Shown here: positions 3,401-39,163 of the stretch, piece by piece | How positions within the stretch are numbered: position 1 is the first letter of the stretch | Layout: each line of letters starts with the position of its first letter | NCBI GenBank assembly: GCA_040954595.2 | Contig: CM082585.2 | Coordinates: forward strand, 11,608,979-11,672,978 | Source of the DNA: Balanoglossus misakiensis | Taxonomy: Eukaryota; Animalia; Hemichordata | Length of the DNA stretch: 64,000 nt | Direction of reading: 5' to 3' | Translations under genes and position numbers: made by a program | Notes under the pieces: model-generated | Databases searched by the model: none | Seen by the model: only the letters and a program-made list of their open reading frames with translations | Told to the model about the DNA's origin: nothing

Positions 3401-3904
3401 GTGGCGACAATCGCCCGGGGCCCCCCGGGGGTTGATTAGTGGGCGTGTCACTTGACCCGTAATATTGTCACTATTTGGCGGGCTCCTTTAAAATTATGCT
3501 GTCTGCCTAGGCCAGAAAAGTCAATGTATCGACTTATTTACCCCACATTTTAACAAGACAACCGTACCTTCCTCGAAACTCTCATCTTCAAAGCCTTCTA
3601 AACGCCTTCTACACTTTTCCGGAAAAGCAGCTTGAATAATCCTCCATCGATTCTGGTCGATCAATTTGTTTTCTCGAGATCGCTTTCGGGCCCAGCTGCT
3701 GATCCTAATCCTACACATCGGACAGGTGAAGTTGGCTTCCTCGACATTCTTTCGGAAACAGGGCATACAAAGTTCGTGAGAGCATGGCATGGTTACCGGC
3801 TCGATCAGAATCGACATACATATCGGACATATACAATCCGAAAGCAACAAATCTGGCCGATTAATGTCAAGCGTCGGACGCGATCTGTCGTCCTTAGCCG
3901 CCAT
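467..3904 (-). CDS. RNF168: E3 ubiquitin ligase RNF168 (RING, UMI/MIU1, long disordered region, MIU2-LRM2); 5 coding exons approx. 3568-3904, 3166-3242, 2872-3046, 2630-2782, 467-2444
   Basis: RING CPICMSILIEPVTMPCSHELCMPCF...CPMCRIRISSWAR; exon 2 CEPGEVRKEYEEQL; QEEELEFQASAELIKKL; C-terminal SQEELDFQLAMKLQRQYD...NRAKGSRDSYLLR matches the RNF168/169 MIU2-LRM. GT-AG junctions were read manually. Confidence 0.9.
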
Positions 3905-4156
3905 TTTGCAAAGTTTTGACAAGTCTCGTTGTGCGCGTGACGAGAAATGACGAAATGTTTATAAATAAATCGAAAAAACTGATTACGATGTATTTTAGAA
4001 ATATTTTGTTCATATCTTCCGAGTATTTGTCCAATTTGGTGTTTTGACCATTTCATAATCTGATTAAGGTATATGGCACACACATTTCCATGTTTGTGAT
4101 ATAATTTCAAAACAGACCTGTTGAACTAAATTTCCCATGAATCTGAGCAAACTAAG
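3905..4156. promoter_or_regulatory. Bidirectional promoter region between RNF168 and EIF2A
   Basis: The divergent ATGs (3904 on -, 4157 on +) are separated by only 252 bp. Confidence 0.7.
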
Positions 4157-7100
4157 ATGGCTGCGCCCTGTCCACTTGTCGCGGGTGAGTTGATATATTG
4201 AGTTGACCCGAAAAATGAGAAAGAGTGCATACTTTGACAGTTTGAAAATATGCGACACTAACACGGAGTGAAACAAACTAGAATTTTGCAAGAATGTTGT
4301 GTGAAAGTTCTTTTCTTTGAAGTATCTCGAGTTAGACTGCCACATGGCAATGTTTTCGTCGCACGTGCACGTGTGATAATGTACACACCTTCCACGTTGT
4401 GTCCCCCTCATACATCTTACCATATTGCTGCAGTTTTGTAGCCCCGCGACTACCCTTGACGATTTTTGTCTAACTTCCCCATACCATGTGGTACGTCCAT
4501 GCCCTCACATAAACAGCCGTAGATCCGCAGCAGATAAATGTAGCCCTGAATCCCGTACAGTGTTTTCCGAGAAGGGGGCGTTGCCCCCAAAAGACTGCCA
4601 GAGCACCAGGGTTACAATTATTGCACTTGCATATGTTTGGTTGTATTCTCTTTTTACAGTGCGGGCCTCTGCAGGCACATCGTTATTTCAAGGACCACCA
4701 GCATTGAAACAGTTTGACAACTTTTCAAGGTGACTATTTATTTTCTCTTTCAGTGACCTTTGACCTTGTTAACCAACTAAAGCTAATCTTTATACATGTA
4801 TAACTATGGCCAATTTCATCAGGTCTGTTGGGTTGGATGTGTGTGTATTGCAATTTTCATATAATAGTATATCATTTAGCAAATACTAGTAATATGTAAC
4901 AATAAATTAAGTAATGTACATTATATGTCAAATGAATAGTGAATGATCTCTTTCTTCATCTCTTGCAACAGTGACACAAGCCCAAGATGTAGAGTAATAG
5001 CATTCAGTGCTGATGGCAGTCTCTTTGCATGGTGTAATGGACAAGTGTAAGTATTACTTTTCATAAGTTATCTCTTTAACTAATGGCTGATCAGCTGTAG
5101 CTGATAACAGAAATTGTCAGTAGTTGATGGTGGACAAATTCAGATCTGCCTATGACTGTATTTTCATGCCAGGTTTTGAAATTTCAACCACGAATGTCTC
5201 AACCATCCATGTCCAATAATGTGCGATTTTTCCCCTTGCAGCATAAATATCACCAGTTTACCAACAGGTGACTTTGTGCAGAGAATTGACCGACCCAAAA
5301 CTGTGTGTCTGCAGTTTTCACCCAGAAACAACATTTTGGCAACTTGGGAACCTTATGCTGGTGAGTTATAAATCATGAGTGTTGAATGTCATGTAGCATA
5401 TTGATTAGGTTGGTACATGTAATATAATGAATGCAGTCTTCTGGGGACTTTGAATTTTAACCCAATTTTGTAGGATTTAGCAGGAAAAACCATAAACCTA
5501 CTACCTCTGTTGAATTCAGTTACCAAGGATACACCAGCAGGAACTCCTAATTTGCATTTATGGGATGTGAAGACTGCGCAAGACCTCAAAGGGTTTGTAC
5601 AGAAGAGACAAGATACATGGTTAGTGCATTGACTTGCTGGTAGAAATCTTGTCAGGTCCCCTTTTCTCTCTACAATCTTGTTTGGTGTTTTGAAAGATGT
5701 GATGACAGCTAAACCTGATCAATATATTTTGGACATCTTCATACATGCAACAGAAACAATAAAACAAAATTCCCGACCTACAGGCCTTCTCTATTTTTCT
5801 TTCAGGTGCCCTCAGTGGTCATCGGATGAGAGTATCTGTGCCAGAAATGTGAACAATGAAATCCATTTCTTTGAAGGCAATAACTTCGGTGGGTACCTCT
5901 CTGTTAAAATCTGTTTGGGAAAAAAATTGATGCAGAACATGCATGGCAATGCTTGTTGGTCCAGAAGTCTGGTTGAGAATGTGTGATGACTCTCACATCA
6001 TTTGCACCGCTTCCTACCTACTGATTTTGATTTGATTTGATTTTTCACCCACACTAGACACCATAGTCAGAAAGCTTCACATCCAAAAGATTGCAGACTT
6101 CCGACTCTCTCCAGGTGACATGCCTTGCAAAGTAGCAACATATGTGCCAGGATCAAAGGTAAGATTGCAGCAGCATTATTAAAAAGTTTATCTGTAAAAT
6201 ATTATTATGATATGAAATACAAATGTGTTTATGAATAATTCAGCAGAATACAAATTTTCTATTTTCCAGGGTGCACCATCATTTGTACGTGTTTACAAAT
6301 ATCCAAATTTGGAAGGTCCTGGATCGATGATTGCAAACAAGAGTTTCTTCAAGGCTGACAGGGTCAACATATTGTGGAATAAGAAAGGTAAGCTATCAAC
6401 TGAAAATCTACATGTACACTCCAGGATATTCAATGGGGATATTATAAGCCCAAAAGAGAATACATATCACTCCTATAGTTGTTTCTGTTGAAATATTGTG
6501 TTATATTTTACATCTTGACCATTCCTCACAGGGACTGATTTGTTGGTGATTACAACAGTAGACGTTGACCAAACAGGTGCATCATATTACGGTGAACAAG
6601 CTCTTCATTACATCAGTGCAAAGGGAGAAACAAGTAATGTACCTCTGGGTGAGTAGCCTGAGCGCGCTCTGTGAACTCTGACCTATGACACCTAGAATGA
6701 CTCCTGTTACGCTGCTTGGTAGCCCATGACCTTCAACTATCAATGCAGGTGGGCAAGTTTGATTTGATGTTCCCGTAAAAACTATCAATGCACCTTTGCT
6801 AAGTTTAAGTCTCTATCATGTAACATTGGCATTTGTTTTTCCCTTTCCAGCCAAGAAAGGTCCTATATATAGTGTAGATTGGAATGTGAATTCCACTGAA
6901 TTCTGTGTTGTGTATGGATGTATCCTTTGTTGTTTTCATGTCTAGTTTTAGACAATGTTTTGAATTCTTTCTCGAAACATTTGTGCCAGACCTTGGTTGG
7001 GTTCTGACTTCGTAATCTATGTCTATATCTAATTGCCAAAGATATGTATTCTAGTCATGGCTAGGTTGTAGTTACATCATGTGTGTTTGAGATCACAAAA

Positions 7101-9402
7101 TAAGGCCATGACTTCCAAATATGGATAACAAGAGCGGTACTCCTTAACTGAGTGACAGTTATGCCTGCCAAGGCAACATTGTTCAACTTGAAATGTGAGC
7201 CTGTGTTTGACTTTGGTACTGGACCCAGGAATATTGTACACTACAATCCACAAGGAACCAATATCCTTTTGATATACGTTTAGTGTCACTGTTCAATTTT
7301 CTATACATATAGTTCAGATAGATGATACAGACAGACACTGTAGCATGCACACATTCACACGTGCGTGCACCTACACAAACACACACGTACACACATGCAC
7401 ATGTGCCACAAGCTCACCGACATGAGAATATAAATGAACTTTAACAAAATTTTCCCTAACTGTCGTCACTTATTTGCTTGGCTGGATTTGGTAACCTGAG
7501 AGGAAACATGGTAAGTTAATTATGCAAGGAAAAGGTGTGCAGAGTTTAACAAAAATTGTAACGTTTCTCCCACTGGACCGTGTACTGTTTGTCTTGCCTC
7601 ACATGAAAATGTCCTCCATGTAAATTTCGTAGCCACGCATGACCTTGCAGAGTCTTGTGGAGTTCTGACAATAACGCATCTTAAAATGTTGAATTTCAGG
7701 AATTCTGGGATCGCAAGAATCTGAAGAATATCAGCAAGATGACCGCCAGTGATTCGACTCACTTTGAATGGTCTCCAGATGGCGCTCACTTCTTGACTTC
7801 TACATGTTCACCCAGGTTGAGAGTAGGAAATGGGTGAGAGAGGGGGTACTTTATGGGATAAGCTGGGCTTTGTGGGGGCAGATAGGTTCATAACCTGGGT
7901 ATGTCATTTAAGTGACTTGTCTCATTGGAGCATGTGTCTTTATAAAACACTGTCTGGGAGTAATGAATATACAGTGGCTGATTTCATGGTTTGATTAGTT
8001 CGATGTCTTCAAAGCAGTGAGGTGGATGTCAATCAATTATTACAGAATACAATTTTGTGTACTTAGGTTCAAAGTCTGGCACTATACAGGAAGTTTACTG
8101 TACGAGACAGAAGTAGGGGAATTGTGGGAAGCCACCTGGCAGAGTTTCCTAGAGGGAGTGCTCCCAGAGAAACCAATAGTGTACCAAGCTGTTCCATCAT
8201 CCGTCAGCCCCTCCAAACCAGAAGCAAAACCTAATGCATACAGACCCCCAGCCCTGCGAGGACAGCCCCACAAAGCCATTAGCGTGGTAAGTACAGAAAT
8301 CTAGTAGAATCAAAAATTGTGAATTGTTACATTACCAGTTATGTTGAGTTGTCCAAATTTAACGTAAAGAATATAGTGCACTTTGCAATAGTGTAGGTAC
8401 AAAACTGACAGGTCAAATCCTCGTCTGTTTTTCCAGCACGCTCGGGAGGAGGAATTGCCACAGAATATGAAACCCAAAGGAGACAGTGGTAAGAAATGCT
8501 ACATTTTCTCCAGAAGTGTGAATTGCGCCCTCTATGCCAACAGAGTGAATGAATGGGGGATGGAAAAAAGACAGATCCAGTCTTGTTTGAAAGTGGTTGA
8601 CTATTCAAACTGCTTTGTCAGTTATGTTATGCCCCTTTTCTTCTTTTTTACAGAACATTTATCAAAGTCTGCTCTGAGGAATAAAAAGAAAAGAGAATCG
8701 AAAGCAAAAGGCAAACACGAGGTGAGGATTTGTTAAGATTAGTTTGAGTGTGATAAGGGGAAAGAACATTGGTCATCTTAACAGACAGAATAGATGTCTG
8801 TGATATCTAATAGTATTTTTGTTTTCAAATTTGAAGGATGAGTTATCCCAGGAAAAACGAGATGCCATCGCCATGGCAGCCTACGTCATGGCTCCATCTC
8901 AACCAGCACCACATGTCCAGAATACTTTTGACCCAGACAGCAGTGGTGCCGATCCTGAGACAGAGAAAAAAATCAAAGGACTGAGAAAGGTAGACCTATA
9001 TTTTTAGTTTTTTGCAGATGTAGTCTAAAGGGAATAGAGACTCTTAAAATATTAACAACCCCATGTTGGATGAAAACCAACCAAAAATCTGTACTTGGAA
9101 TGGATTTTGGTGCCATTTTCCAAACATATCAAATTTTCAACATTGAACACAATATAGATACCCAAGAGAGCAGATTTTTTTCAAACTGAATATTGCAAAC
9201 TCTGAGCTCTGTGAAATTGGAATAGAAGTGTTGCTAGGAGATAGGTCTTTAATTTGCTTTTAAATTTGTTTTCTAGAAATTGAAGCAGATCGAGAAGCTA
9301 AAAGAACAGGCAGCATCAGGAAAGCAACTTGAGAAAAACCAGTTGGAGAAACTTGCAACGGAAGACGCCATACTGCAAGAACTGGAAGAACTCAAACTTT
9401 AG
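4157..9402 (+). CDS. EIF2A: Eukaryotic translation initiation factor 2A (WD/beta-propeller), multi-exon
   Basis: Exons read MAAPCPLVA|VRASAGTSLFQGPP, CPQWSSDESICARNVNNEIHFFE, GAPSFVRVYKYPNL..ANKSFFKADRV, DVDQTGASYYGEQ, YGFMPAKATLFNLKCEPVFDFGTGPRN, LAGFGNLRG, PRLRVGNG, AYRPPALRG, KKIKGLRK|KLKQIEKLKEQAASGKQLEKNQLEK; TAG at 9400-9402. Confidence 0.95.
4426..4619 (+). ncRNA. Candidate intronic box H/ACA snoRNA in EIF2A intron 1
   Basis: TGCTGC(4426)/GCAGCA(4527) close a 5' hairpin; H box AGATAA at 4532-4537; 3' hairpin closed by TAGCCCTG/CAGGGTTA with inner GGGGGC/GCCCCC; ACA at 4614-4616 followed by 3 nt, about 40 nt before the 3' splice site. Confidence 0.45.
6920..7158 (+). other. U12-type (minor spliceosome) GT-AG intron in EIF2A
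   Basis: 5' site GTATCCTTT at 6920; branch point TCCTTAAC at 7141, about 10 nt before the AG (7157-7158); splicing restores YG-F-MPAKAT in frame. Confidence 0.9.
7261..7469 (+). other. U12-type AT-AC intron in EIF2A
   Basis: 5' site ATATCCTTT at 7261; branch TTCCCTAAC at 7452-7460; terminal AC at 7468-7469; splicing restores YNPQGT-I-ICLAGFGNLRG. Confidence 0.9.
7524..7673 (+). ncRNA. Second candidate H/ACA snoRNA, in the EIF2A intron 7511-7699
   Basis: GCAAGG...TCTTGC hairpin, H box ACATGA at 7601-7606, TGTCCTCCAT...GTGGAG..GACA hairpin ending in ACA (7668-7670). Folded by eye only. Confidence 0.3.
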
Positions 9403-10914: not shown

Positions 10915-13875
10915 TCAAATCGTATTACTGATTACAGTATTGCGAATGTCTTGGAGGCTGAAAGCTGTGTTGAAGACAAAGTTTTCTGGGTCTTTCTGTT
11001 CCATCAGCATAATCCCTTTGCCACTGACTGCTAAGTAGAGACCTACAGAGGAAAACAAAACAGAATCTGTCTAGGTTACAATATTCTTGCATAGTAAAGA
11101 GTTATCTTGGATCAGATTGCAAACAAAAGTTTTTAGATGATGAGAGAAAAGTAGTAAATGTATTCATGATTGCTTACCTCTAAAATATGCTGACTCAAAG
11201 ACATATCTATCTGTACCCTTAGCCCACAGTCTGCGATAAAACACTCTGCCATCAACATGTTTCAACTTCTCCAGGCTGACGAAGCCCACCTTCTGAAAAA
11301 TAGAAAGCATTGGATATATTTTAAAATCCCCACTCATTTTTGGTGTGAAAGTAACCTTAGCTTTTTATATACAAGAAAGCCATGATAACACTTTGTTTTC
11401 AAGTTTGAGAATTATTTTACCTTGAATGTCAGACTGCGATTGCGTCCTGTTGAAACGGCCAGGCACTTGTTGAATTGTTGGTTGAAGAGTACGACCGCAA
11501 GATCTGGATCGTCTGGGTTGACTTCATTTTGTATGTCGTATGGCCACAGAACTTTGTACTGGTACATTGTCCATTGTCCTGCAATTATTCACAGAAGGAA
11601 TAGACTAATTTAGAGATAAAAAGTTCAATACTTACAATCATCTTGCATCAATCAAGATACCTTGCTGAAAACTGTTTTCATTCTCTGCCATGTATGAACA
11701 AAAATCTGTTTTCTCTCACCTTCTTTGAAATCATTATTTGCCGCCACTACTTGCAATCGATTCCTGTCAGGCATGGCAACAAAAGAACTGGAATCATTGG
11801 AAGGATATATATATGTGTTGTATCTGTCATAGTAATGCACCATGGGGAATCCATCATCAGATTTATCTATGTATTCCCTCTCCAAGACAATTGTCTCAAA
11901 AACAATTTTGCCATCTGGAAATCAAACAAAATAGAATCAGATTAGCAATTGAGTGTTGCACTCAACATACAGCCAATATGTCACAGTTTCAGGGAGGAAA
12001 CATGTCCTTGTGAACAAAACGAGACTGACCATCAAACTAGCATACTTGGTTTTATCTCTAACTTTTTAAAAAGAAACTTCATTGGCCAATACACCGACAC
12101 ACAATAATTGAAGGTGGTGTAAAAACTCACTGTCAATCAGAATGTCTATCTTGATTTCAATAAATGTGTACACTTCAGTTGGTCCGTCATCTTCATCATC
12201 ATCATCATCGTCGTCATCATCAGGCTCAAGTTCTATCTTTCTCTTCAAGATCTGCAAACAGAAAAATATTTCCATGCTATTGAGAATTGTTTCAACTCTT
12301 TAATCACATGGCAGATGTTAGTAAATGTTCATTCAATTACACACTGTCACTGCATGAAGTAATTCTGAAAATGTACATGCAATTTGACCACCAACTTTTG
12401 CCTACTTACAAATATAATTTGTCCGTCCATTTGATGAAAACGGTCCAAGATATCCCTGTGTTCAGCTGCTGAGACATCAAGGCCATTAACTGCATGCAGA
12501 ACATCACCAACTCTGTGAGATTGAAAATATATCATGTTACAAGAGGACATTAAAGTTTGATCCAACTCGGGGAGAAAAGATTATTTTGCAGTGTTCTGCT
12601 GTGTTTGTGACAGCAGTCTTTAGTCACCTTTCAATGTTATCCAATACACAAGACCACATCAAAGCTGTGTATGCGACTACAATGTTCCGACTAAAATACT
12701 ATATGGCAGCTACAATACCTCAATTTGGTTTTCTTTACAAAATCATGTTGTTCTTCTACCGCCGTAATTTTGTGCTTCTTTCTATCTGGAGTTTTGTCGT
12801 CGACATCTGTGCTGAATTTTACTCCCAGTGAGTGAAGATGATCATCAGTGCAAGGTATTTTGATGTCAGATTCCTCATGGATTATTGGTGCTTCCTGTGC
12901 AGAAATCAATCAGTGTGTCAGTCAATACATAAAAACAATTAGTCAAGATCTGCTTTGTTTCATCATTAAAAAACAACATGCACTAAATGCCTGTACTCTA
13001 ACACTAACCAGGCATTGTCTGAAATATTATTCTGGCTTTCATTAACGTTTTTGTTTTATAAAAACAATCAAAGCAATCTTAACTTTTAGCTATTTGGTAT
13101 AAAATATACTCCATTTCTGTGTTTGTAAACAAACAAACAAACAAACAAACAAACAAACAAACAAACAAACAAACAAACAAACAAACAAACCATGAGAGAA
13201 CATCCCATGGCCATATCCCTGTGATGGAGCTACACTATCTCCATCATGGGTTTTACCGATTGCATAATTTAAAGGCTATAAATAACCGAGGAATTTCCCT
13301 TACATTGCAGGGATGACAGCTCGAACTTCCGTATTTAAATACATGTACGTCCAAGATTGCCTAGCGAATTTAGTGAAGTATGTACAATTTCACCATCGAT
13401 GGCTGAAATATGGTTCGTGAATAACCCCACTCGTGCCACGGTGCAAGGGTCAAACCGGCGAAGAAAACGGTGAGTGATTTATAGACCGCGGAACCACCAC
13501 TTGTAATGAATTATCTGAGTGAAAAAACGATCGAGAGGGTTGGGGAAAATTTGCCAATAGGATGACATGAAATTGACAACTTACCATACTATCCTGTGCT
13601 CGTATACAAGGTGTTATCACCTCGATCACTTTGTGTTCAAAGTCTTCCAGGCGGGAATGAATTGTGCTTGTCAAAGAGCCAATGAAGGATTCACTCTCCA
13701 CAGGACGCGATTTTTGAAGCCCGCTGACTCTCTCTTCTCCGCACAGCTTTCCATCAACGCTGTCGTCAAATTCACCATCGAGGCCCAGACCTCGCATGGC
13801 GGTTGTGAACGACTTCTGTTTTTTAAATGCGCGAGGATCGGGCGATCGGGATCGAGTAGTTTTTTGTCCAATCAT
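10915..13875 (-). CDS. IL-1/IL-18-like beta-trefoil cytokine precursor with N-terminal PDZ domain, ~428 aa; exons 13585-13875, 12719-12894, 12410-12512, 12131-12251, 11720-11914, 11421-11578, 11178-11292, 10915-11042
   Basis: All seven GT-AG junctions are phase-compatible (1287 nt). PDZ: HSLGVKF...KITAVEE...KLRVGDVLHAVNGLDVSAAEHRDILDRF. Acidic run EPDDDDDDDDDEDDG. C-terminal QWTMYQYK...LAVVLFNQQFNKCLAVS...SLTFK|K...RVFYRR...RYVFESAYFRGLYLAVS resembles the IL-1 family signature. The start codon choice is less certain. Confidence 0.8.
13127..13190. repeat. (AAAC)n microsatellite
   Basis: Read directly from the sequence. Confidence 0.95.
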
Positions 13876-13924
13876 GTCGAAGTCTCCGATTTTTTCAGAG
13901 TGTGTCTCAGTTAAACATCTACTA

Positions 13925-14010
13925 GTAAAGTTCCCAGGCTGTCGAATGCTCAGGCTGTCGATATTTATAGACATGGAAATCCGTGACGTGTACAGACGGG
14001 GAATTCCCCA
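13925..14010 (-). promoter_or_regulatory. Core promoter of the IL-1-like gene: perfect NF-kB palindrome, CRE half-site and TATA box
   Basis: GGGGAATTCCCC at 13998-14009; TGACGT at 13984-13989; TATAAAT on the minus strand at ~13963-13969; kB-like GGGAACTTT (minus) at 13927-13935; ATG at 13875. Confidence 0.7.
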
Positions 14011-14915
14011 TCGGGAACAGTTCACTATTCAGTTGGGTAGGTCAACATTTTTGGTGGTGTTAGCAAACTTATCAATTTCAAAACATTCGAATTATTGTAG
14101 GAAATCAAGAGTAGCGTACGCCAACCTTGGGGTCCGGTGTGTATTTTTATGACATTTTTCTTTCTTCGATATTTTTGCAATCCCCCCTTTTAAAGTTGGT
14201 CCTGCCCACCCCTCCCGTCGTGACTTTGGTTTACACCGATCGCAACCCACACATTTCCATATTTGGCAGCTCCAGCGGAAATCAATACGAACACAGGAAG
14301 TCAGAGTCAATCGACTTTACATGATGTAATATTGCACGTGTGAAGCTCAAGAAAAGTTGGAAATGAGAAAAAAAGCATGAAACATAGAGGCTGTGCGTGA
14401 TTTTTTTTATAACAAGCGTTGTCTTGTCATCTGCAAATTTTGGCAAGACAATTTGAGATGGCGGGGGGGGGGGGGAACAACACAATACACATAATTAATC
14501 TTACAGCAGTTATCATTTATTGTAAAATCTTGGATACCAAACTTAAGACCTCAACACACTACTTATTTGCAAATAATTGGACAAAATCACTGACATTTCA
14601 TTTCATTTTGGTTAATTTCTTCTATTTGGTAACTATATGAAAGTTCAAAAAATATCCTCACTAATTTACAAATCTATTGCAAACATGATGTTGGTCATTC
14701 TTTATAGTAAAGACTTGTACTATAAAAAAATTTCATGTAAATAATTATTTTGCTACACACTACAAATCGGACATTCAAGGTTTCTTTGACTTTTCTGATG
14801 TGATGACCTTCGATATCTGAAAGTGTGATTATCTTTGCCAATACAGTGCAATTGGGATGATGATTAGTATCTTCCCTATCACTGCTGATAATTCAATCTT
14901 TATAGAGTGATCTAA

Positions 14916-15000
14916 CCCTTTCATCGGCATGGTTCAGTCCAAACCCATTGTTTTCTATGGTAAGGCTGGACCTCTAAAGAGCGAACTAGGGGTGAAAGGG
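14916..15000. mobile_element. Short MITE with CCCTTTCA/TGAAAGGG termini and (C/T)TAA flanks (piggyBac-like ends)
   Basis: ctaa-CCCTTTCA...TGAAAGGG-ttaa. Confidence 0.5.
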
Positions 15001-15348
15001 TTAATCTATTGGACTTCTGGAAGTTGATGCAAACATGACATTCATAAACCAAATTGAGTTTCAATTTGTATGGACATCATGTACAAACACTTGGCAGTTG
15101 GCTCTTTACAAGAAACATGTACTTTTCAGTGGTGGCGGCGTCAGCTAAAAACTGCATTTCTTGGACATAAGATACAATTATCTACTTAAAGCAATTATAA
15201 CACATTGTACATGTGTCGGACATTTCTTAAAGCTCTCAACTTTTCAGCAGCTTTTGAGTTCTACGTTTACCAAATGTCTTTTGGCCACAATTGCTGATTT
15301 CTGACACTAGCATTTGCCAGAAATTGTGATGTCATTTTAAAGTCAAAA

Positions 15349-18300
15349 CTAAATTGCGATATTTGGAACATGTTCATGATGGACCTGAGCTTTAATGTTT
15401 TCTCTTTTCGTTTCATCGTCCAGACTTACAGCGACAAAGTCTGTTTCTAGTGCTGAATCTGCACTCACTGCAGTTCCACTTCTGGTAGTTACACCCCCGT
15501 TGTCCAGTCCCGGCCCGTCCACCAGGTCAGAGGTCGGTGAACCGCAATACCCACTCTCACCCGATGAGCTTATCTGCCAATCGATCAGATTCTGTCGCTC
15601 CAACTCTTCCGACTGGAGCGTCTTCGACTGATCAGATATAGCCTTCAGGGCGTGGGATCTCCCTGACGGACTTCTTGGTAACTGCAGCAACAATGTCTTC
15701 CAGAATTTGGCGGTTTTCTTCAAATTGTCCGGTTGCCATTTCAGACAATTTGTGACCCTGATGATGTGTTTCAGGGCTTTCATGTGATCAATATCTGCAT
15801 TGGCTGGAAGTTCTTTGGCAATGATGATAACCAGGTTGCTGTGGAGTTTGAGAGAATGTTCTAATGCCACGTTGAATTGAAACGAACTCCAATGCTCCTT
15901 CAGGTAGTCGGGGGTCAGCACAATGATCCAACTTTGGCTGGCTTCAATCGACTCAACAACACTATCTGCAATAGCTATCATACAAATACAAATGAAAAGT
16001 TAGTAAAACGTGTGATTTTTTGGAAATTTTTACTTTCAAATCTATAAATTTCTGATGTAGTTTTGCAACAATGCATGTACAGGATAGTCATTTGATTAAC
16101 TTTTGATACACTGATTATAGAATATTTTAGGTTTAATCAGAAAGCAATTATGACTTACCAGTTCCAGCCAAGAAATCTCTTTGCTCGACACAAAGTTTGA
16201 ATCCGCACTTTCCCTCAAGGTAGCGCATAATGACATATTTGACAAAGCGAAAATCTTGATCTGTTCCACTGTGTGAGATGAACACATCATACTTCTTGTC
16301 ATCTGTGGAAACAGAACACAAATGTGGATGAAACTGTATGACACATGGCAGTTGCAATGTGCTACAAACAGGTATTGTCTTCCTAAAAAGTTTATACTAC
16401 ATTCCTGATTATTAAAGATACAAAGTCTCACTTTTAGTACGGTAAAGAAATTTAAAATTTCAAAAAAATTATCAAAAATTTATCAATATTAAAGTTACAT
16501 GTTTATCATCATGGCCGATCTCAGTGACGCAAATTCAAATTTTGGCCTTGAGTGAGAAACTTCCAGGTTTTCCTGTTAACTTCCATATTTATTTTGTGTG
16601 CAAACAATTATCCGGTACTCATATTCAGCAGATACCGGAAAATTCCAGTTAATGACGGACAAAATTTGGGTCAGGGACTGCTGTACTATGACCTATATTC
16701 CTGCCCAGTTGAATGCTCTGCAATTCTCTGGTTTGCTTCATACATCCTTCATTGCACATGGGGTCTTTGGTAAACTGGGTTTATATTAGAATATTTCTCT
16801 GGAAGTGTATATAAACCAAAGTTCAAAGACTGACGATCATATTTCTCATGCGTGTTTATCATTGGAGCACGTATTCAGGACTATGACCCAGTTATCTTTG
16901 GCACTGATGAATGGGTGAATGCACTGGCTCTATAGACATTAAAAGCCATGAATACTATTTCCAGGAAATTTTATTCTGGGGGGATATGGTGAGCAGGAGT
17001 GGGGTGCTTTGAGCAGAAGAAAAGAAAAAAGTTTGACAATTCGTGGCGATAATGTTACATTCTTTGGAACGTGGATCCGGACATGTTTTTCACGGAATAG
17101 AACAGAAATATATTTCTTTGAATACAGTAATCATCCTATCAGTTCCGCTGTACAGGTTATAAGGTCAAACACAGAATGATGTCTGAGTATCTTATGTCTG
17201 GACTGGTCTTTTGAAATTCTTAAAATTTTCTCAGCATATCTCAAATGTCCATTGTTGAAGTATTACCCAGCATCTAGGTTTTTTTGAAATGCGATAACTG
17301 GGTTAAAAGGTTTATGAGGCTTTGATATGATTTAAAGGCTGACACCAGTGAACCCACTTGTAATTGTTTGACAAGGCTACGTGACTTGAATCCTATGACC
17401 TATATATGGTACTGGTTAAAACCACTTTTGGTTGTCACTGTTTTGTAAATATTTTCACACCTGTTGAATATTAGGCTTGTGCTTTCGCAGTGGTATTACC
17501 ACATGGTTCAGTACAAGGAAAAACATCAACAGCTTTGATGAGAGAACAAACATTAACTAATGGAATGTTTATCAAACTGCCCTCTTGATGACATCACAAA
17601 ACTGGTTTTGGTCACTGGACCGCTCGCGTAAACATGTTAACAACCGACAACAAGGCGGTGACTGCCCTATTGTGAGTTGTGACCCCACGAAAGGTGTGGC
17701 AAAAGTCCAAGGAGGGGTCATGACCTCCAGGAGGCAGCCATAAAAAGAAATAGTACCATATACGGTAGTAAGTTGCTGATCAATTTCCGTAGGAAATTAC
17801 CATCACCTATTCAACAAAGACTGAACAGGCCAGCAATTAACTTACATAATGTTGAGTAATCGAAGAACTGCGGACCGGACCGGACCGGAACTACCAGTAG
17901 GAATGTGCTCTTTAGAAAATATAACACAGCAGTGTAACTGAATAATACACTCATGATTTCTACATATCGTGTTTTATGGGAAGAGCTGATCTGTAATTAG
18001 ACTCTGGTTATGAAATGTGATATTGTATATTGCACATTTCTCCGTCTCAAGAAGGCAACTCAGTCCTTTTGAGTTCAATCAGAGTTCAGAACCTGATGGG
18101 CCTGCAAATATACCAGATATCACTAGAAATACTCAGAGACCAGGTGTATGTAGACCATTGTGGTGGCAGTTTTGCATGTCCTCAAGATATTCTCTTTGAA
18201 TTTAATTTTGTAGGTATGTGTATAACATGTAATTAACACTAAACAGACTGGTGGAAAACAGTTTAAAATTCATGTTTGTCCCTTCTTTTATTATATATAT

Positions 18301-20988
18301 ATTTGCTTAAATAAATATTAACATATTTGGAAGTGTAACGCAAAATGGACATAACTCCAAGATCATTTACAAATACATAAATCTGCATGCATGAAATATT
18401 GATAAATCTGTGAAATATATTATAAACAATGTTGAATATTTCTGTATGGTATAAATATCTCTAACACTGTAAAAAACTCCTCTGTATCCAAGTCTGTATC
18501 TGTATATTGTAGAATTCTTCAGGTCTTTCATAAACCCTTGAGGCTCTTGGTGAAACACTACCAAGACTATCATAAAAGCAGACTGCTGATTGGTTATTGC
18601 TCATCTTCTGTGGTCACTCCAACCAATTGGAACCATTCTTCTGATACACTGTGAGATGTCGCCAGGTCATCACACCGCTTCTTACATTTTTGCACTGGCA
18701 GTCAGAAAGAGGCTGTTTATGTGTTCAACATCCCAACCATTACCTCTAACCCCCCCCCCCCCCCTAGATGAAACCCTGCAACTCTCATTGTCAATGAAAG
18801 ATCAACAGTTCTAAGAAAAATTCTTAATCTTTTCTTAAGTAAATATTTCTTGTAAAAATGTCTATGAATTTAAAATTCACACATTTAACATTATCTCACT
18901 AGTTTCCCCTTTACTATGTAAAATTGCTACATAGCAGCTTATCACTGTTACTAATATAGTACAACAAAGAATCTTATGTATTCAAAAGACGATAAATGGT
19001 AACAAATGCATGACACAGCATATTCTACCAGGGTCTAGTATGTATGTTGCCTTCCATGTGGAGAGCGCCTTCTAGTGGTAAATCTGGCAGTTCATGTTTT
19101 ACTTGAACATTTCTTTGTCACCTTCAGCCAAAGATTTAAGAAAAATACTACTGTATCTTCGATTGTTTTTGAAACCTTTTTTATACAACATGTTTGTCAA
19201 ATGTGTTATATGTGCTTCTGTTGTCTTCCGTTTTGAGGTTTGTGCGATCCTTTTCTGGCAGAGAGGGCGCTTTCTCGAGTGAGGGAGGACACTTACCATT
19301 TTTTTCCACTTTGCCAAAATTGTACTTGTAGATGAGTTTTATATCAAGTTTGAATGTCATGCCAAGGGCGGACAGAATGAGTGCCATGATGACAATCGAT
19401 GAAAGGACTATAATTATGATCAATAGGGTTGTGCTTTCTGCAGTTGAAGGTCCTGGATTTGGATCTGAAAGAAAATGGAGAACATTCTAAATTGAAAAGT
19501 ATTGTATTTGATATGTACAACGAAAGTTATTATTTATAACTAGCCTACTTTAAAGGCCAATATTTGTTGATGTTAGCATTTCTATAGATTTTAACAAATG
19601 ATCACTTTTTCACTTATTAAATCAGGGATACAGTTGCATGCTGTTACCCTCACAGCCAGTCAATATGCATATACTATATCCCCCTGGAGTTGCTTTGTTA
19701 TCTGCCTCTGCAAATGTACAATAAACAGACTTACCCCCATAACTCAGTACCAAAGGAATATCTATGCTTCCATGGGCGTTGACTGCTTTCACTACATATG
19801 TGGCATAAGTAGAAGCTCTTATGTCTTGTATGTAAAGATATATGCCGATGGTTTCATTGTCATCTCTGAAATCAATACACAAATAATTTTGTTGTTGTTG
19901 TTGTTGTTGTTGACTATTTTTGTTTGGTTATCAATTGCAGTCCTATCCTACCATTGAATACAACAGGGTGGAACTATATTTTCATGGTAAAGGGTCTTGC
20001 TATTTGCCTCTCACCTTCCCCTCTGTCTGGTACTGTATGTTCTGTTATCTAAGTCTTCTATGAAGTAATTACTTGTCTGGTTGTGCTTGTACCAAAAAAT
20101 CATCTTGTCTTCGTCTCCACCATGTCCAAAGAAGAACTCGCAGTAGAACGTCACATTAGAGCCATGGAGTCTGGTGTAGTTACGGCAACGTGTCGAGTTC
20201 AGCTGGTGGGGTTTCTCTGTAAACTGCATTGCTGTGTGTGTATGGGAAAAGTTTGAAAAACAATTTGCTTTGTTAATTTTTAACTGAGAGTAGTGATGAT
20301 CTGACGGAATTGAACACATCTGTACTTTGGATTGAATGTACACCAATATACTGCAATTTATTCTCAACAGAGCCATACAGACATGACCATGTACTTGAAA
20401 AATTCAAAGAAAATCTTACGTTTGGCCTGTAGTTCTTTGGTGTGGCTGATTGTACTTGTTCCATTGGAAGCACTACATGTATAGCTTGCCTCATCCCTCG
20501 TCATCAAATACCGGAATACTAAGGTCTGGTTTCCATTATCCATGAAAGTCTCTGCTTGATCGACCCCTTTCCATGGATAAGGATCAGAGCCTTTATACCA
20601 AGTCATCATCAAATACCCTTCGGCACAGCACGACATGTCTTTGTATTGGGTAATGGTTCCAAACTCAAGATCACCCATGTCTGGGTTTGTGAACTTGAAA
20701 GTGTCATCTATATTGAAAAGAAACAGCAATCAAATACCAAAAGATCAACTAAAAGTACATGATAATGATACCCCTAACTATTGACTTGTCATAAAACTGA
20801 AAGTTGTTTTATAAAAGCGAAAGTTGCGTATTTAATTACATCTTGGTTGTCAAGTTGTGAGACCCACCTTCATCGTGCCCATTAAACTGATCACAGACGT
20901 TTTTCCCATGAGCATGGAATACCAAAATCGAAGACAATATTATTATGACTATTCTGGACTGCAGTGGACACCTTGTCAGTTGTTCCAT
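15349..20988 (-). CDS. Interleukin-1 receptor-like protein (signal peptide, 2 Ig domains, TM, TIR, C-terminal tail), ~564 aa; exons 20868-20988, 20420-20707, 20015-20231, 19735-19865, 19297-19464, 16159-16302, 15349-15974
   Basis: Hydrophobic leader IVIIILSSILVFHAHG; Ig1 SCCAEG..TWYK...DEASYTCSASN; Ig2 VTFYCEF..FWYK; TM LLIIIIVLSSIVIMALILSALGM; juxtamembrane/box1 KLDIKLIYKYNFG..DDKKYDVFISHS typical of IL1R/IL1RAPL; box2 GFKLCVEQRDFLAG; box3 KFWKTLLLQLP. Exons sum to 1695 nt in frame. Confidence 0.88.
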
Positions 20989-21945
20989 GGTTTTCAATGA
21001 ACTGAAATAGTAAAGCAATATCATTTGGGATGTTATGCTATTTTACACGTAAATGATGAATTCAGCATAATTTGGGAAACCCCGCCTGCGTCATCGCCTT
21101 ACAAAGGAACTGATGAAGTGCGGAGGAGAGGAGTGCGTAACGGCCCGTACGTCATTAATCTCACCCCTGACTTTGTTCATGTATGAGCGTGACCAGGAAG
21201 GTCCAAGAAAGTAACTTACAAACACAATGTTGGTCTGATCACAGTGACTGTGCTGATCACCATCACCATCAGTAAGATCAGGATGTGACAACCGTGTTCC
21301 ACTTTCAAAAACTTTGTACACAACATACATTCCATGCCAATATTACCTTAAATAATTACGGACTCATGTTACTTTCAACGTCATGTTGCATTTCATAGCC
21401 CGGCCGCGTGATGACCTCATTTGACTCGGACGCAAAGCGCGCGTTTTAGGGCAAATTCCAGGAAATCGCCGCCTTAGAACCGGAAGTAAATAAATGTGAC
21501 TTCAGTACAATACAAAGTAGGCAAAGATGGCTAGAATAGCTTCGCAGACATAGCCATTTTACCTGTTTAAACTATTTTACCCCACTGCGATATTAAAGTT
21601 TTAATTAACACAGTTGCTAAGCAACCAGACGCCACAGCCGGCCCACCAAAGGTACAACCCCTCCCTACCATACTTACCCACCCCCATCAATTCATGAATT
21701 GGTCCAGTTCAGTTCCTCTTGCACTCAATGCGCAGTCTCTGTCCACGTTCTTGCAAAGGTGGCACCCTTCGACAGTGAAGAACTTTGTTTTCATTTTCCC
21801 TACCCGGTACTCCAGTATTCTTGCCAATATAGAGTAGTTGTGTAGAGGGTACACGGTTTGTCAGGTCAGTAGTCTTTTCATCAAAGACATTCTTGTGGGA
21901 AGATCGTACCAAATAATTTATTTGACGCTTTAAAACCCTTCGACC
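20989..21945. promoter_or_regulatory. Divergent promoter region between the IL-1R-like gene and GCC2, with kB- and ETS-like motifs
   Basis: Head-to-head genes; GGGAAACCCC at ~21074-21083; CCGGAAGT at ~21480; a possible non-coding exon donor on the minus strand near 21561. Confidence 0.45.
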
Positions 21946-24900
21946 ATGGCGGTGAGTAATGACTACAGGTTGTGGTGTACATTTGTACGACAACCGAACT
22001 TCAGAAGAGATTGGAGATATTACCGTGGTGTGAAGGTGGAAACGGGGAAATGGGATGGTGGGTTTGATGGGAGTAACTACTGTAGATGTTATAATTAAGT
22101 CCTAACACCCACAGATTCCCTGGTGATTGTGTATTGCAAGGTACATGTACATGTAGCCTGGATAGGCGTTTACAATACATGCCATCACTAACCCTGGAAC
22201 AGCTGAATGTGATGCCAGGTCATGCAGTGATTGATGTATTGTATTTGATGTGTTGGCACAGCCATGGAGTACATTAAGCTACTAGTAGTACCTCAAATGG
22301 TCTAGCCTAGAATCTATAACATTGCTTATTTTGGGTCACAAGTGGATTCTATGTGTATGGAGTGACCTAGCTTCAGCTCAGTAGCTCGAGGTTAAACCAA
22401 TAGGCAAAAACCTCGAGGTAATGAAGTGCAGCTAGGTGTGACCTAGCAAATGTGCAAATTAAAATCAACTGTAGAGATAGGCTCCAACCTTCCACTGCTA
22501 GATGTAATTGATGCTTGCAGGTTTGTTCTTCTGCTGTCACCTCTCTGCAAAAGAACAAGAGCAGAAAGAGGCAAACACCCAGCAAATGTAAAGGTGGCAC
22601 CTATCTCTACAACTGGTTTTTATGCATTCTAAAAATTAACTGCAAATTTTGAAACCAGGTGACATTTGTTATTCCGAACTGCGTGACTAAGCCCCTTTTG
22701 ATAATGGTATATTAGAAAACTGTATGCTCCTTTAGCAAGTGTGGTATTTGCATGTATTATTTTCAGTTTGCATGCAACATGTGGCCGGGATATTAGTGTT
22801 TACCATATTTATCCTATTGTGGATGGTTTTGTAAATTTACAGAGCTGTACAACAACTCTCTCATTATTAAGAAATCAGATGTTTCAACTTCTGGAGAAAA
22901 AACCTACATAATAAGAATTAAATAATTCTAACATTGACTGTTGTGAACAAAAAGTTGGGAGTTTTTTAATGCAGGGTATTTTTATGGCATAGACTATGAA
23001 TAGAAAAAGTACAGTAAATCTGTTTGGAACAACATCATAACATGTGTTACATACTGATCTGTTTATTTATGGGTCAGTGATTTATAAAATCAGCGTATTA
23101 TTAAAAGGAACGACACAGGTCCAGGTCATGGATTCCCTGATTTCTATCTCTTCTATTGGTTGGAAATCTGGTCAACATTGGAAAATGGGATAAACATAAG
23201 GACCAAAATGGCCAATTGATTCATTTTCTTAACCTTTGACCTTTACAGTCAGATACATGGGGAGACTGGGATGAGAAATTTCTATCGGAGGAAAAACACC
23301 AATTTGGAAAGATGAATGAAGAGAACAAAGAGGCAGTGTCACCGGGCGGAGAAGGGGCAACGAAAACCACCCCACAAAAATCAGGAAAGGTAAGGATGGA
23401 GATTTACAACGCATTTGCAAAGTTAGGTTTTCATCAGAATTTTTATACTACTCCATTTATGGCTGCTCAGTGTAATAAGTGTTGGTTTATTGCTGACCTC
23501 TGCAATATTATTTGTTTCTTCGTCCAGCTGGATTCCTTGTCAAGGGAAGATTTGATCAAGTATATCAAAAAACAACAGATACTGGTCCAGAAAATCAGAG
23601 CAAAATGTGATGGTAGGTGCATAGCAATGAAATCATCAAAAATTAAAGTGGAATGTGATTTCTTCATTTTACATCAGCAAGTTTTGCTTCTTCGTTACCC
23701 TTTATTTCAGCAAATACATTCAATTTTTTTTTACAGACTTAGCCAAAAAGAACACAGAACTGGAAAAGGATAAGAATGATAGCTCGAGTGCCGAGGGCCA
23801 AGGCAAAATTCAGGTGAGTTTGACAATGAAATGTATGATAAAGATTAACTGTTAGTGCATGTATGTGTTGTGTTAGTCTAGAGATTATCTGGTGATTTTC
23901 CCTGCAAATAGGAATGTCTATAGACTGCTATGAGAACCTCTAAGCAACTATTTCTGCATTGCAGGAGTTAGAGTCTGAACTTGCAGACTTGAGAGCTGAA
24001 CACAAAGAATTGATGGCCGCTTATAGTGGTGTCCAACTACAACAGGAAAATTCAGTGCAAATCCATGAGGTAAGAGAATGTTACATGCAGGCACATATAC
24101 CTTACATAAAGTATTGACAGAATAGGTGGCGGTTTTGAACAAATTAGACAGACATTGTCAAGTTCAGATTTGCAATGGATATTTCCCTAAGAAATCTAAT
24201 AAAGACTAATATTGATCTCCTTTGTAAAATAAAAAAATGATTCTAGGATCTACATAGTAAGGTCAGTGAATGGACAGAAAAGTTTACAAAAAGTGAAGAA
24301 GAAAAGAAAAAAATCCAGGAACAGTATAATGCTGAGGTGAAAAAGAATCAGGTGAGTTAGTCTGTGCTGGAATGAAAGAATGATACTGATTGGCTACTTG
24401 ACACCAACTGCTTGTTTAAATATCCAATTGTCTGCTGTTTTTTAAACTGGGTGATTTGAAGACTCTGTTGGTACCCAGCATGCATGTGAGAATCCCCTCT
24501 TCCCAACATAGGGTTGCAGCAAAAATAGTTCAATCTTTATGCTGTTGATAAAGTTGGGTTTGTGGGTAACCTTGGTGTGTGTTGGTATTAAGGTGGTTCC
24601 TTCCATGTTCCCTTGGTTATTAGAACATGGCAGAGCAGTTTGAGTGCATGAAGATGAAAGAGGAAACCATGGCAACCACATTCCAGTGTCTGCAAGAGGA
24701 GTGTCAGAAGCTGACTCAGGAGAAAAAAGTAATGCCTTTATTTACGACATACCGGTATTATCAAAAGAAAAAATTCAGAAACAAATGCATGTGTAAATCA
24801 ATGTTTATGCATGTTGAGACAGAATTGACCCTTGACCTTTGAACTTGTGGATCATTGCAGGACTTGAGTGATCAGGTCAGTGTTTTGACCGTGGCCAGAG

Positions 24901-27900
24901 ATGAAACCATGAAGGCTATGAAAGCGCTGAAGCAAGAGCAGCAGGGTAGCGACAGTGCCAGCGCTCAGCTGCAGGTCCAGATAGAAGCTCTGACAGCAGA
25001 AAGAGATATGGCCAAGTCTGAAGTACAACAAGCTGTGGAGAAGATTGCTGATCTGCAGGGGAAGTTGGAAGATGCAAAGTCTGGTGAAGAGAGACTCGAG
25101 GAGGAGAGTAACAAGTTGAGAGATGAGAACCAAGATTTGAAGTCAAAAGTTGAAGAGTTGACGGCCATCAGAGATGAGCTTGAAGGTCTCAAAGCAGGTG
25201 TGGGGCAGAAAGACGAGGAATGTGAAAGTTTGAGATCAGAAATGAAGAAACTGACAGAGAGTCATGAAAGCGTTAGAGGACTTAACGAGGAACTGAAATC
25301 ACAGATTAGTTTACTTATGAATGAAATGGAAGTTGTCATTGAGGAGCGGGACAAAGTCAAGCAAGAAATTGAAGCTGTCAAAACTGAACAACAGAAGATA
25401 GCGGAGGAGAAATCTGATATTGAAAAGAAGCTCGAAGAAGTGATGAATGAAAAGGAACAGGTTAATTCAGAGTTTGAGACTGTGAAATCTGAGAGAGATG
25501 ATTACAACAAAGCCCGGGAAGAACTGAGGAGTGAACTTGATTCAGTTCTGTCAGAAAAAGAGAGGTTGTCGGTGAGGTTGACAGAGATTCAACAAGACCA
25601 GGAGAGATCAAGCGGGGATTTAGAAGGAGAGTTAGAAAGAGTGCGTAACGAGAGGGATGGACTTTCTGCAGATGTTTCACGGTTGCAGTCAGAGAAAGAA
25701 GAGCTTGTCAAGGAATCTGAGAGTGTGAAGCAGGAGCATGAGAGCTTTGAAACTGAGATGAAAACCAAATTTGAATGTTTGCACGAAGAAATGGAGAAAA
25801 TGAAAACAGAGCTTGCAAGATTGAATGCAGAACGGGACGAGATTAGCAGAGAGTTGGAAGACTCCCAGGTTGAGAAGGAGAGGTCGGTCGATGAACTGAA
25901 AATTCAACTGGACAACTTGAAGACGGAGAAGGAAAATGTTGCATCAGAGCTGGAGAAAGTGATTGAAGACAGAGACAGGATGATGAAGAAGCTAGAAAGT
26001 GCCAACATAGGAGTTGAAACCACGGCGATGGAGCTGCAGAATGAAATGAAGAAAGTACAAGAGGAAAGAGATCAGCTGCATGTACAGACGGAGAAGTTGA
26101 TGGGAGATAACCAGAGGCTCTGTGATGAGATGGAAATGGCCACACATGAGCACAAGGGTGCTAGACACGACCTAGAGAATGAGTTAAGTGATGTGAAATT
26201 CGAGCGAGATGAGCTGAAAATCAAGATGGAGTCGCTGCAGGAGGAAAGGGCAAAGTGGACGGGAGAGATGGAGGTTGTCAGTCACGGTCTGGAGGAGGCC
26301 CTCAACGACATGCAAGGTAAACTTGAAGCAGCCAACAGCCAGGTAGGGCAGCTCACGTCACAGATTGAAAGTTTGGAAAAGGAGCGCGATCAACTCACAG
26401 GAAATTTACAGACACTGCAGAGGGATAATGAAAGCTCATCTGGTGAACTTCAAAATGAATTGCAGAAGGTCAGAGGTGAATTGCAGAGTGTTCAGGAAGC
26501 TCTGTCGGTCAAAGAGGCAAATCTTGAAAATGCCGAACAGCGGTTGAGAGATGCGATCCAAGAAAACAATGTTGTGAAAGAGAAACTGACAGGAGAGCTG
26601 CAGGGTGTGATTTGTGAAAGAGATGAGATGAGAAGCAAATTAGAAGAATTTGATCAACTTCGGTCTAAGTATGAGAATCTTCAGGAGCAACTGAAGTCGG
26701 CAGAAGAAGCAAAGGAACAATTGGAGGAAAGTTTCGGCGGACAGAATGCAGCGAGAGATGAGGAGCTTGGCAAACTGCAGACTGATGTCCAGAATCTGCA
26801 GGGTCAGCTTGGGTCAGTGGAGGAAAGAAACCAGCAACTACAGCAGCAGTTGGAGGAGAGTGTCAGCAAACAGAATGAGGTCAAAGGTGATCTGGAAGTG
26901 ATGTCAAAGGTCAAATCAGAGCTGGAGGAGCACTTGCAGAAATTGAAAGAAGACGTGGAGAAGGAGAGATCAGAATTCAGAGAAAAAATTGAAAGTTTAG
27001 AGTCGGAGAACAACCACTTGAAAAATGAGCTATCATCATTGAAAGACCAGAAACAGATGGCAAATGAAGAATTGCATACAGAGCTCACTAGAATCAGGGA
27101 AGAAAAAATCTCCTTAGCAACGGAGTTTGAGAATATTCAGAGGTCAAATGTCAACATGGAAGGAAGGTGCCAAGAACTGGAGAATAATCTTCAGACTTTA
27201 CAGGCAGAGAAAGTTGAAATGCTTAAGATCAAAGAAAAGTTAACTCAGGATGGAGAAGCTTGCACAGAGGAGCTGAAAAATAAAATTCAGAATTTAGAAA
27301 GTGAGAAGGACAAGATAACGGCAGATATGGCTGCTTTGAAAGAAGAATCTCAGAGGAAAGATGAGATGAATAATGAGATGAAGAAAGAACTCAGTAACCT
27401 AGCAACTGTGAGAGAAAACTTAACCTCCGAATTGGACTCACTTAGAGAGCAATATCAAAATAGCGATGAAAATAGCAGTAAACTCACAGAGGAGATCTCT
27501 GTTCTGAAGTCACAGACTGAACAGTTGGAAACTCTGAAACAGAATCTTGAAGCTGAGGTGGAAGCGAGTAAGAAAAGCCTACAAGAGAAAGAGGCGCAGC
27601 AACAGGAAGTGACATCACGGTTGGAGGAATCAAACAACAGACACGGAGAACTGACAGAACGTATTCACAAACTGGAAGAGGAGCTTGGAACAGTGCAAGA
27701 GAGACTTGCAAAAGTGACAGAGGAGAAAGATGGGCTGATGAAAGAATTGGAAATTGAGAAGGTGGGCAGAAAGAAAACAGAAGAGACTGTACAAAAGATG
27801 TCGGAAGAGAAGGGAGAAGAAGGGGCTTTAGAAAAGGAGCTGGGTAAGGACAAATCTCACTTAAGAAATTGAATCGTATTTGTCAGTATTTTACACACAG

Positions 27901-35830: not shown

Positions 35831-39163
<3,333 letters not shown>

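Follow-up and report, generated by a model that had tools for sequence, protein, structure and literature searches.

The IL-1anc family of interleukin-1 (IL-1) ligands and the ancestral IL-1/IL-1 receptor (IL-1R) locus have been described by Fontenla-Iglesias et al. (PMC13736523, Nat Ecol Evol 2026; bioRxiv 10.1101/2025.07.17.662885). In that work, EIF2A is a linked neighbour of the IL-1 gene in every ambulacrarian and GCC2 in hemichordates; a putative IL-1R is linked as well, except in sea urchins. Linkage of ligand and receptor is kept from cnidarians to hemichordates (PMC13736523; the preprint of July 2025 agrees), and the ancestral block also retains ESD next to genes of the IL-1 locus (PMC13736523). 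Here, such a locus is described in the hemichordate Balanoglossus misakiensis, within a window of 64,000 nucleotides (assembly GCA_040954595.2, contig CM082585.2, positions 11,608,979 to 11,672,978). The window contains an IL-1anc gene and, directly upstream of it, the gene of an IL-1R-like receptor. Microsynteny with the putative IL-1R, EIF2A and GCC2 matches the published hemichordate locus, even if the Pfam support for EIF2A is weak, and the window is almost certainly a further species' copy of this locus.

Of the IL-1anc members compared, the nearest is PflaIL-1 of Ptychodera flava. Like the family, the window protein lacks a leader and has an N-terminal basic motif, a PDZ domain, an acidic linker and a C-terminal FES domain; as in the published locus, its gene has those of a two-Ig TIR receptor, EIF2A and GCC2 for neighbours. 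The protein is not identical to any of the P. flava, S. kowalevskii or Glandiceps talaboti proteins compared. The 64-kb window holds one ligand and one receptor gene, whereas S. kowalevskii and G. talaboti have two ligand genes each; tblastn with the Glandiceps orthologues found no second ligand or receptor paralogue in the window. A preliminary description of this DNA had implied that an invertebrate IL-1 ligand and an ancestral ligand-receptor locus were new, and here it was overtaken by the publications of 2025-2026. According to the same publications, the adjacency is not confined to this genome and occurs in cnidarians and ambulacrarians (PMC13736523; preprint).

The ligand and its predicted trefoil

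Both gene models were spliced by coordinates from the minus-strand reading and are supported by homology; all 13 introns of the two genes are of the GT-AG type. As judged from its sequence, the ligand is an IL-1anc and an orthologue of PflaIL-1 (XP_070538561.1): in two trefoil stretches, counted by hand against the sequence in Table S2 of PMC13736523, 42 of 66 residues (aa 231-296; 64%) and 42 of 53 (aa 354-406; 79%) are identical. By these counts, it is closer to PflaIL-1 than to G. talaboti LOC144442221, with which it shares 182 of 428 residues (43% global) or, counting just the trefoil region, 99 of 188. The Glandiceps protein was the sole single-stretch hit among 23 phmmer matches to ligand exon 5. 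The other 22, all multi-stretch, were dropped; the two that were inspected are unrelated repeat proteins. A word-index search with the same exon gave no match. A further homologue search among 836 candidates returned three matches: the other isoform of LOC144442221, LOC144442320 and an unnamed JGI protein. The two Glandiceps genes are IL-1anc paralogues, about 80% identical to each other; NCBI lists them as "uncharacterized" and not as IL-1, and the term "Glandiceps" does not occur in the main text and text supplements of PMC13736523. When the Glandiceps ligand orthologue was used as a tblastn query, exons 2, 3, 5-6 and 7-8 were matched, and exons 1 and 4 were not.

The absence of a leader and the presence of a PDZ domain, both proposed in the preliminary description, are upheld. 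The N-terminus is not hydrophobic, with an 11-residue hydropathy maximum of 0.6 (judged by hydropathy only, as for the receptor). None of the eight ligand exons, each searched alone, gave a Pfam match. The full-length Glandiceps orthologue, however, matches PDZ_6 (E 4.9e-4, below the curated cut-off) and the GRIP1 PDZ (E 2.5e-5), as well as PDZ structures in Foldseek (prob 1.0), and 40 of 89 residues (45%) of the window PDZ region are identical to it. Such a PDZ pro-domain distinguishes the window ligand from vertebrate IL-1beta and IL-18. Between the PDZ domain and the trefoil lies the acidic linker, which is kept in all hemichordate homologues compared and is a candidate cut site for a caspase or other protease, by likeness to Asp184 of SpurIL-1.3 (PMC13736523).

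The basic motif FKKQKS occupies the position of the nuclear localization signal predicted for PflaIL-1, SkowIL-1.2 and AjapIL-1.2 (PMC13736523), and its KKQKS core is also present in the Glandiceps and JGI homologues. Together with the missing signal peptide, this conserved motif would fit a protein acting mainly inside the cell, as a nuclear factor, a PDZ scaffold or an alarmin at cell death, next to a receptor that is a separate pattern or surface sensor. SpurIL-1.1 and 1.2 are indeed nuclear, only PmarIL-1.1 was secreted in culture, and a pro-inflammatory function is not demonstrated in PMC13736523. However, IL-1alpha and IL-1beta are equally leaderless, the acidic linker is kept throughout the hemichordate homologues, and nuclear storage is compatible with receptor signalling once the protein is released; a mainly intracellular role is thus considered improbable.

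The C-terminal part of the ligand (exons 5-8) is predicted to be an IL-1-type beta-trefoil because of its orthology to PflaIL-1, which is the strongest ground, the FES motif and the weak profile matches. PflaIL-1.1 has been modelled as a trefoil, according to a figure legend in PMC13736523. The (F/L)ES motif of IL-1anc strand 9 is present as FES (aa 380-382), aligned to the FES of IL-18. A profile built from three homologues and four window exons gave 20 PDB matches at E<=10. Of these, 19 are IL-18 or IL-36-family proteins whose alignment covers the FES stretch; all are weak, with E values of 0.16-2.1, and none is significant alone. In the Atlas, the top three clusters are IL-18/IL-1 (0.88-0.89), under the 0.9 mark and taken as leads only. 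A conserved phase of two central trefoil introns relative to FES is among the traits of IL-1anc (PMC13736523). The window introns that may correspond to them lie at aa 295 (phase 1) and at aa 348 (phase 0), the latter 32 residues ahead of FES. Human IL1B has the phase order 1, then 0.

Structure prediction added little: two AF2 models of the Glandiceps ligand orthologue, made with 6-7 sequences, reached a pLDDT of 40 and 43 and are too poor to interpret. The second contained 12 strands. Foldseek placed IL-36Ra on top for a low-confidence model (E 0.03, TM 0.2) and gave no match at E<=0.001 for either, while VIA-align had its top Z of 5.2 for unrelated propellers, with an IL-1 chain in 0 of 50 rows. 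Of the trefoil claimed in the preliminary description, the IL-1 identity therefore stands via PflaIL-1 orthology; the fold itself was not confirmed by our own models. An FGF-like, ricin-like or other all-beta fold would be in line with the Pfam IL1 family giving no match on the Glandiceps ligand orthologues and with no search of this analysis returning a significant match to any IL-1-family protein. It is nevertheless very improbable in view of the FES motif, the 19 of 20 IL-1-family profile matches, the IL-18/IL-1 clusters on top in the Atlas and the local identities, 64-79%, with an IL-1anc that has already been described and modelled (PMC13736523).

Two further observations concern the ligand gene. 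Its intron 1 carries a (TTTG)n microsatellite (13128-13190). Six ATTTA motifs lie within 455 nt past the stop codon; they were set aside as evidence, the region being 74% AT.

The receptor and its TIR motifs

From N- to C-terminus, the receptor consists of a signal peptide, two Ig domains, a transmembrane (TM) helix, a TIR domain and an acidic, Ser-rich tail. This layout, read in the preliminary description as SP-Ig-Ig-TM-TIR, is borne out by hydropathy, Pfam and the Glandiceps orthologue. The N-terminus is hydrophobic (11-residue maximum 3.35), and Pfam identified I-set in exon 2 (E 3.8e-5), a weak Ig_3 in exon 3 (E 0.017) and TIR in exons 6 and 7. In a profile search of the ectodomain against the PDB, IL1RAPL1 was the top ectodomain match (E 1.2e-9), and IL-1RAcP is named among mixed Ig clusters in the Atlas. 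The receptor falls within the definition of a putative invertebrate IL-1R given in the preprint (bioRxiv 10.1101/2025.07.17.662885).

A search with the TIR exon, which covered 65 candidates, found one protein, G. talaboti XP_077988342, named X-linked IL-1 receptor accessory protein-like 2 by NCBI. Over the whole length, 305 of 564 residues are identical (54% global). The TIR domain is best conserved (102/147, 69%), followed by the ectodomain (Ig1 59/96, Ig2 65/116; 56-61%) and the TM and tail (9/27 and 38/109; 33-35%). With this orthologue as tblastn query, six of seven exons were well matched, and exon 1 reached merely E 0.67. In the 35%-conserved tail, a Ser/Gly/Tyr stretch (GESGY.GSPT, ~aa 485-506, exon 7) is shared with Glandiceps and could serve for phosphorylation or docking. 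Intron 5 (16303-19296) measures 3 kb, compared to 149-365 bp for the other receptor introns.

The Ig ectodomain, the single TM helix and the TIR domain are common to this receptor and the vertebrate IL-1R family. The TIR motifs were compared with vertebrate IL-1R group 4 and TLR group 3 of PMC7075850. In the extended box 2, E-x3-G-Y-x-L-x-I-x-x-R-D-x-x-P-G, the window TIR agrees at six of nine positions (E, G, L, R, D and G), has conservative replacements at two (F for Y, V for I) and has Ala in place of the Pro. Of the helix E residues F129, W130, K131, Y135, M137 and P138, four are kept (F, W, K, P), with Leu at both Y and M. The likeness to group 4 thus comprises the E-x3-G spacing, L, RD, G, the box-3 FW-K and the final P. 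On the other hand, the TIR also bears the Cys and Phe of TLR group 3, without its His, and the receptor has two Ig domains, where group 4 has one or three (PMC7075850) and vertebrate IL-1Rs have three. Against the PDB, the TIR of IL1RAPL2 came first with 66.5 bits, tied with that of TLR15 (65.0 bits), and SIGIRR was among the upper matches (E 1.8e-14).

Boxes 1 and 3 are intact, as is the RD..G of box 2. The BB loop reads RDFLAG, with Ala where Pro is usual, and this Ala is shared by the window receptor and its Glandiceps orthologue. At this position, TLR3 has Ala and IL-1R1 has Val, and the Pro is important for MyD88-type signalling; a literature search gave no confirmation of either point.

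Gene arrangement, kB sites and cognate pairing

As proposed in the preliminary description, the receptor and ligand genes are co-oriented on the minus strand, with the ligand directly downstream; both are intact, and their coding sequences are separated by 1473 bp. In mammals, the genes for IL-1 ligands and receptors are not known to be adjacent. The likely polyadenylation signal of the receptor (14521-14516) lies 512 bp from the ligand kB site and 552 bp from the ligand TATAAA, as close to the ligand promoter as had been described. The proposed kB motifs upstream of both genes were also found, as matches to the consensus GGGRNWYYCC. The palindromic ligand site is followed on its 3' side by a cAMP response element half-site (-113) and TATAAA (-94, at 13969).

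A kB site within 300 bp upstream was present in 2/2 immune genes vs. 0/5 other gene starts of the window, in a post hoc comparison whose control starts were placed by ourselves, and the chance of a site is about 0.011 per 200 bp. The whole window has 11 strand-matches (seven distinct sites), four of them contributed by the palindromic site, vs. a mean of 3.2 after shuffling; 2 of 100 shuffles reached 11. Post hoc as it is, the enrichment at both gene starts is suggestive. The terms "promoter", "binding site" and "co-fold" are absent from the main text of PMC13736523.

Starting from the observed genes, domain layouts, ligand orthology, neighbours and kB sites, a mechanism can be proposed by analogy. 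Microbial sensing would activate NF-kB, which would induce both genes via their proximal kB sites. The leaderless pro-cytokine would remain intracellular, perhaps nuclear by virtue of its N-terminal basic motif, until a caspase or other protease cuts the acidic linker and releases a fragment of ~215 aa with the trefoil. This fragment would leave by a non-classical route and bind the two Ig domains. NF-kB would then be reached through the TIR, which, lacking the BB-loop Pro, would probably depend on a second chain. Induction and cleavage are included because they have been seen in other IL-1anc members: induction in sea urchin, lamprey and Nematostella, and caspase cleavage for SpurIL-1.3 (PMC13736523). 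We lean slightly towards this mechanism as a whole, in which IL-1anc would signal via the neighbouring two-Ig receptor in an NF-kB feed-forward loop.

Binding of IL-1anc to the putative IL-1R is stated as not demonstrated in PMC13736523. A search of the literature since 2020 for binding of invertebrate IL-1 to IL-1R found only the IL-1anc work and a 2022 review (PMC9020223), with subscription journals mostly outside the search. A co-fold of Glandiceps stand-ins (ectodomain aa 21-248 and trefoil aa 162-336), without alignments or folded controls, scored 0.18 and 0.23 vs. a mark of 0.34, and as a model is no evidence for or against binding.

Several points weigh against a cognate pair. Linkage alone is not proof of pairing: GCC2 and ESD, neither of them related to IL-1 signalling, have been kept in the same block, and in sea urchins IL-1 and the receptor are no longer linked (PMC13736523). 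Human caspase-1 cleaved only one of the eight IL-1anc proteins tested, SpurIL-1.3 (PMC13736523). The receptor has Ala at the BB-loop Pro, a residue with ~90% conservation across the vertebrate IL-1R group (PMC7075850). It has two Ig domains instead of three, and those vertebrate family members that have fewer of them act as inhibitors and do not bind ligand (PMC13736523). Furthermore, invertebrate Ig-TIR receptors have been argued to be parallel in origin to vertebrate IL-1Rs (PMC2858798, PMC7075850), a claim that the mixed TIR motifs, on a reading of their sequence, neither confirm nor overturn. The kB comparison, too, is limited by being post hoc and by its self-placed control starts.

A possible, if less favoured, explanation is the following: the ligand is a true IL-1anc, the neighbour is a decoy, an inhibitory chain, a co-receptor or some other binder, and the linkage reflects a slowly rearranging block, perhaps with shared regulatory DNA. 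GCC2, ESD and EIF2A are equally conserved beside IL-1 (PMC13736523), and the receptor stands head-to-head with the GCC2-like gene, their starts ~960 bp apart (candidate GCC2 ATG at 21946, inferred), an arrangement that could explain some of the linkage on grounds other than immunity. The two Ig domains, given that short vertebrate members are inhibitory (PMC13736523), the BB-loop Ala of both the window and Glandiceps receptors, and the SIGIRR match point the same way. The retention of the ligand-receptor linkage from cnidarians to hemichordates (PMC13736523), the kB sites close to either gene start and the intact boxes of a TIR that is the best-conserved part of the receptor argue for the cognate pair instead; moreover, a decoy or co-receptor would remain part of the same system. 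The higher conservation of the ectodomain with Glandiceps, compared to the TM and tail, also speaks for the pair.

Neighbouring genes and significance of the locus

The gene order in the window is RNF168-like (-), EIF2A-like (+), IL-1anc (-), receptor (-), GCC2-like (+), FIS1 (-), STE20-type kinase (+), sulfotransferase (+) and 5'-nucleotidase-domain gene (+) (Table 1). We presume that the RING-finger gene is related to RNF168/RNF169 and the kinase to STK24/25/26, and take the C-terminus of the EIF2A-like protein to be that of EIF2A. The end of the window is a tandem satellite (62606-64000, unit ~93 bp), two frames of which are open for 350-360 codons; it is likely a non-coding repeat. In Glandiceps, the records of all homologues, receptor and ligands, give a contig of 25,030,103 bp, and the receptor and ligand orthologues are likely on one scaffold.

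Table 1. Features of the B. misakiensis window (positions as in the window; aa, amino acids of the encoded protein).
Feature	Position	Strand	Details
RING-finger gene	470-3958	-	Pfam zf-C3HC4 E 1.5e-9; head-to-head with EIF2A-like gene
EIF2A-like gene (3' part)	5633..9402	+	tail-to-tail with IL-1anc; two weak, sub-threshold Pfam eIF2A matches (E 0.017, 0.042)
IL-1anc gene	10915..13875	-	8 coding exons, 1287 nt, 428 aa, no signal peptide
Ligand coding exons	13875-13585, 12894-12719, 12512-12410, 12251-12131, 11914-11720, 11578-11421, 11292-11178, 11042-10915	-	
Predicted IL-1-type beta-trefoil	10915..11914	-	~aa 250-420, exons 5-8; FES at 11199-11191
Acidic linker	12183..12221	-	aa 201-213; nine Asp, then EDDG; between PDZ and trefoil
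PDZ domain	12410..12894	-	~aa 106-194; exons 2-3 plus the opening codons of exon 4
kB consensus site	13290..13299	-	inside ligand intron 1
Basic motif FKKQKS	13810..13827	-	aa 17-22
Palindromic kB consensus site	13998..14009	-	134 bp ahead of ligand ATG
AATAAA, likely receptor polyadenylation signal	14516..14521	-	sole AATAAA between receptor stop and ligand start
IL-1R-like receptor gene	15349..20988	-	7 coding exons, 1695 nt, 564 aa, single terminal stop
Receptor coding exons	20988-20868, 20707-20420, 20231-20015, 19865-19735, 19464-19297, 16302-16159, 15974-15349	-	
TIR domain	15679..16302	-	aa 309-455; phase-1 intron splits domain right behind BB loop
Predicted transmembrane helix	19349..19429	-	aa 265-291; single peak, hydropathy maximum 3.17 at aa 265
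Receptor ectodomain	19735..20707	-	Ig1 = exon 2, Ig2 = exons 3-4; eight N-glycosylation sequons
kB consensus site	21074..21083	-	95 bp ahead of receptor ATG
GCC2-like golgin gene (part without 3' end)	21946..31786	+	1009-aa coiled-coil ORF; Rab_bind E 9.3e-10; GRIP weak
FIS1	34533-35139	-	Pfam Fis1_TPR_N E 1e-13; head-to-head with STE20-type kinase
STE20-type kinase	36720-38649	+	
Cytosolic sulfotransferase gene	51622-54437	+	Pfam
5'-nucleotidase-domain gene	55525-60719	+	Pfam

The family and its linkage are already in print; the window confirms the hemichordate locus in a further species, and Glandiceps provides another. What is added here are the kB sites at both gene starts, the mixed TIR with its BB-loop Ala and the head-to-head arrangement of the receptor and GCC2-like genes. 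The locus offers a compact candidate pair with two testable details: each gene has a kB site near its start, and the TIR is without the BB-loop Pro.

More tentatively, the two-Ig receptor could be a homologous forerunner of the vertebrate IL-1Rs that binds the trefoil by its two Ig domains alone, the paired kB sites making one 10-kb cassette a self-amplifying NF-kB module; we regard this stronger version as doubtful. If it were true, the BB-loop Ala would mean that the receptor already depended on a partner chain with the Pro or on an adaptor other than MyD88, and this locus, with one ligand and one receptor, would provide an uncomplicated pair for a first demonstration of IL-1/IL-1R binding in an invertebrate. 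The published P. flava locus is likely suited to the same question. If invertebrate two-Ig TIR receptors do bind IL-1anc, the IL-1 axis would predate the vertebrates as a working circuit.

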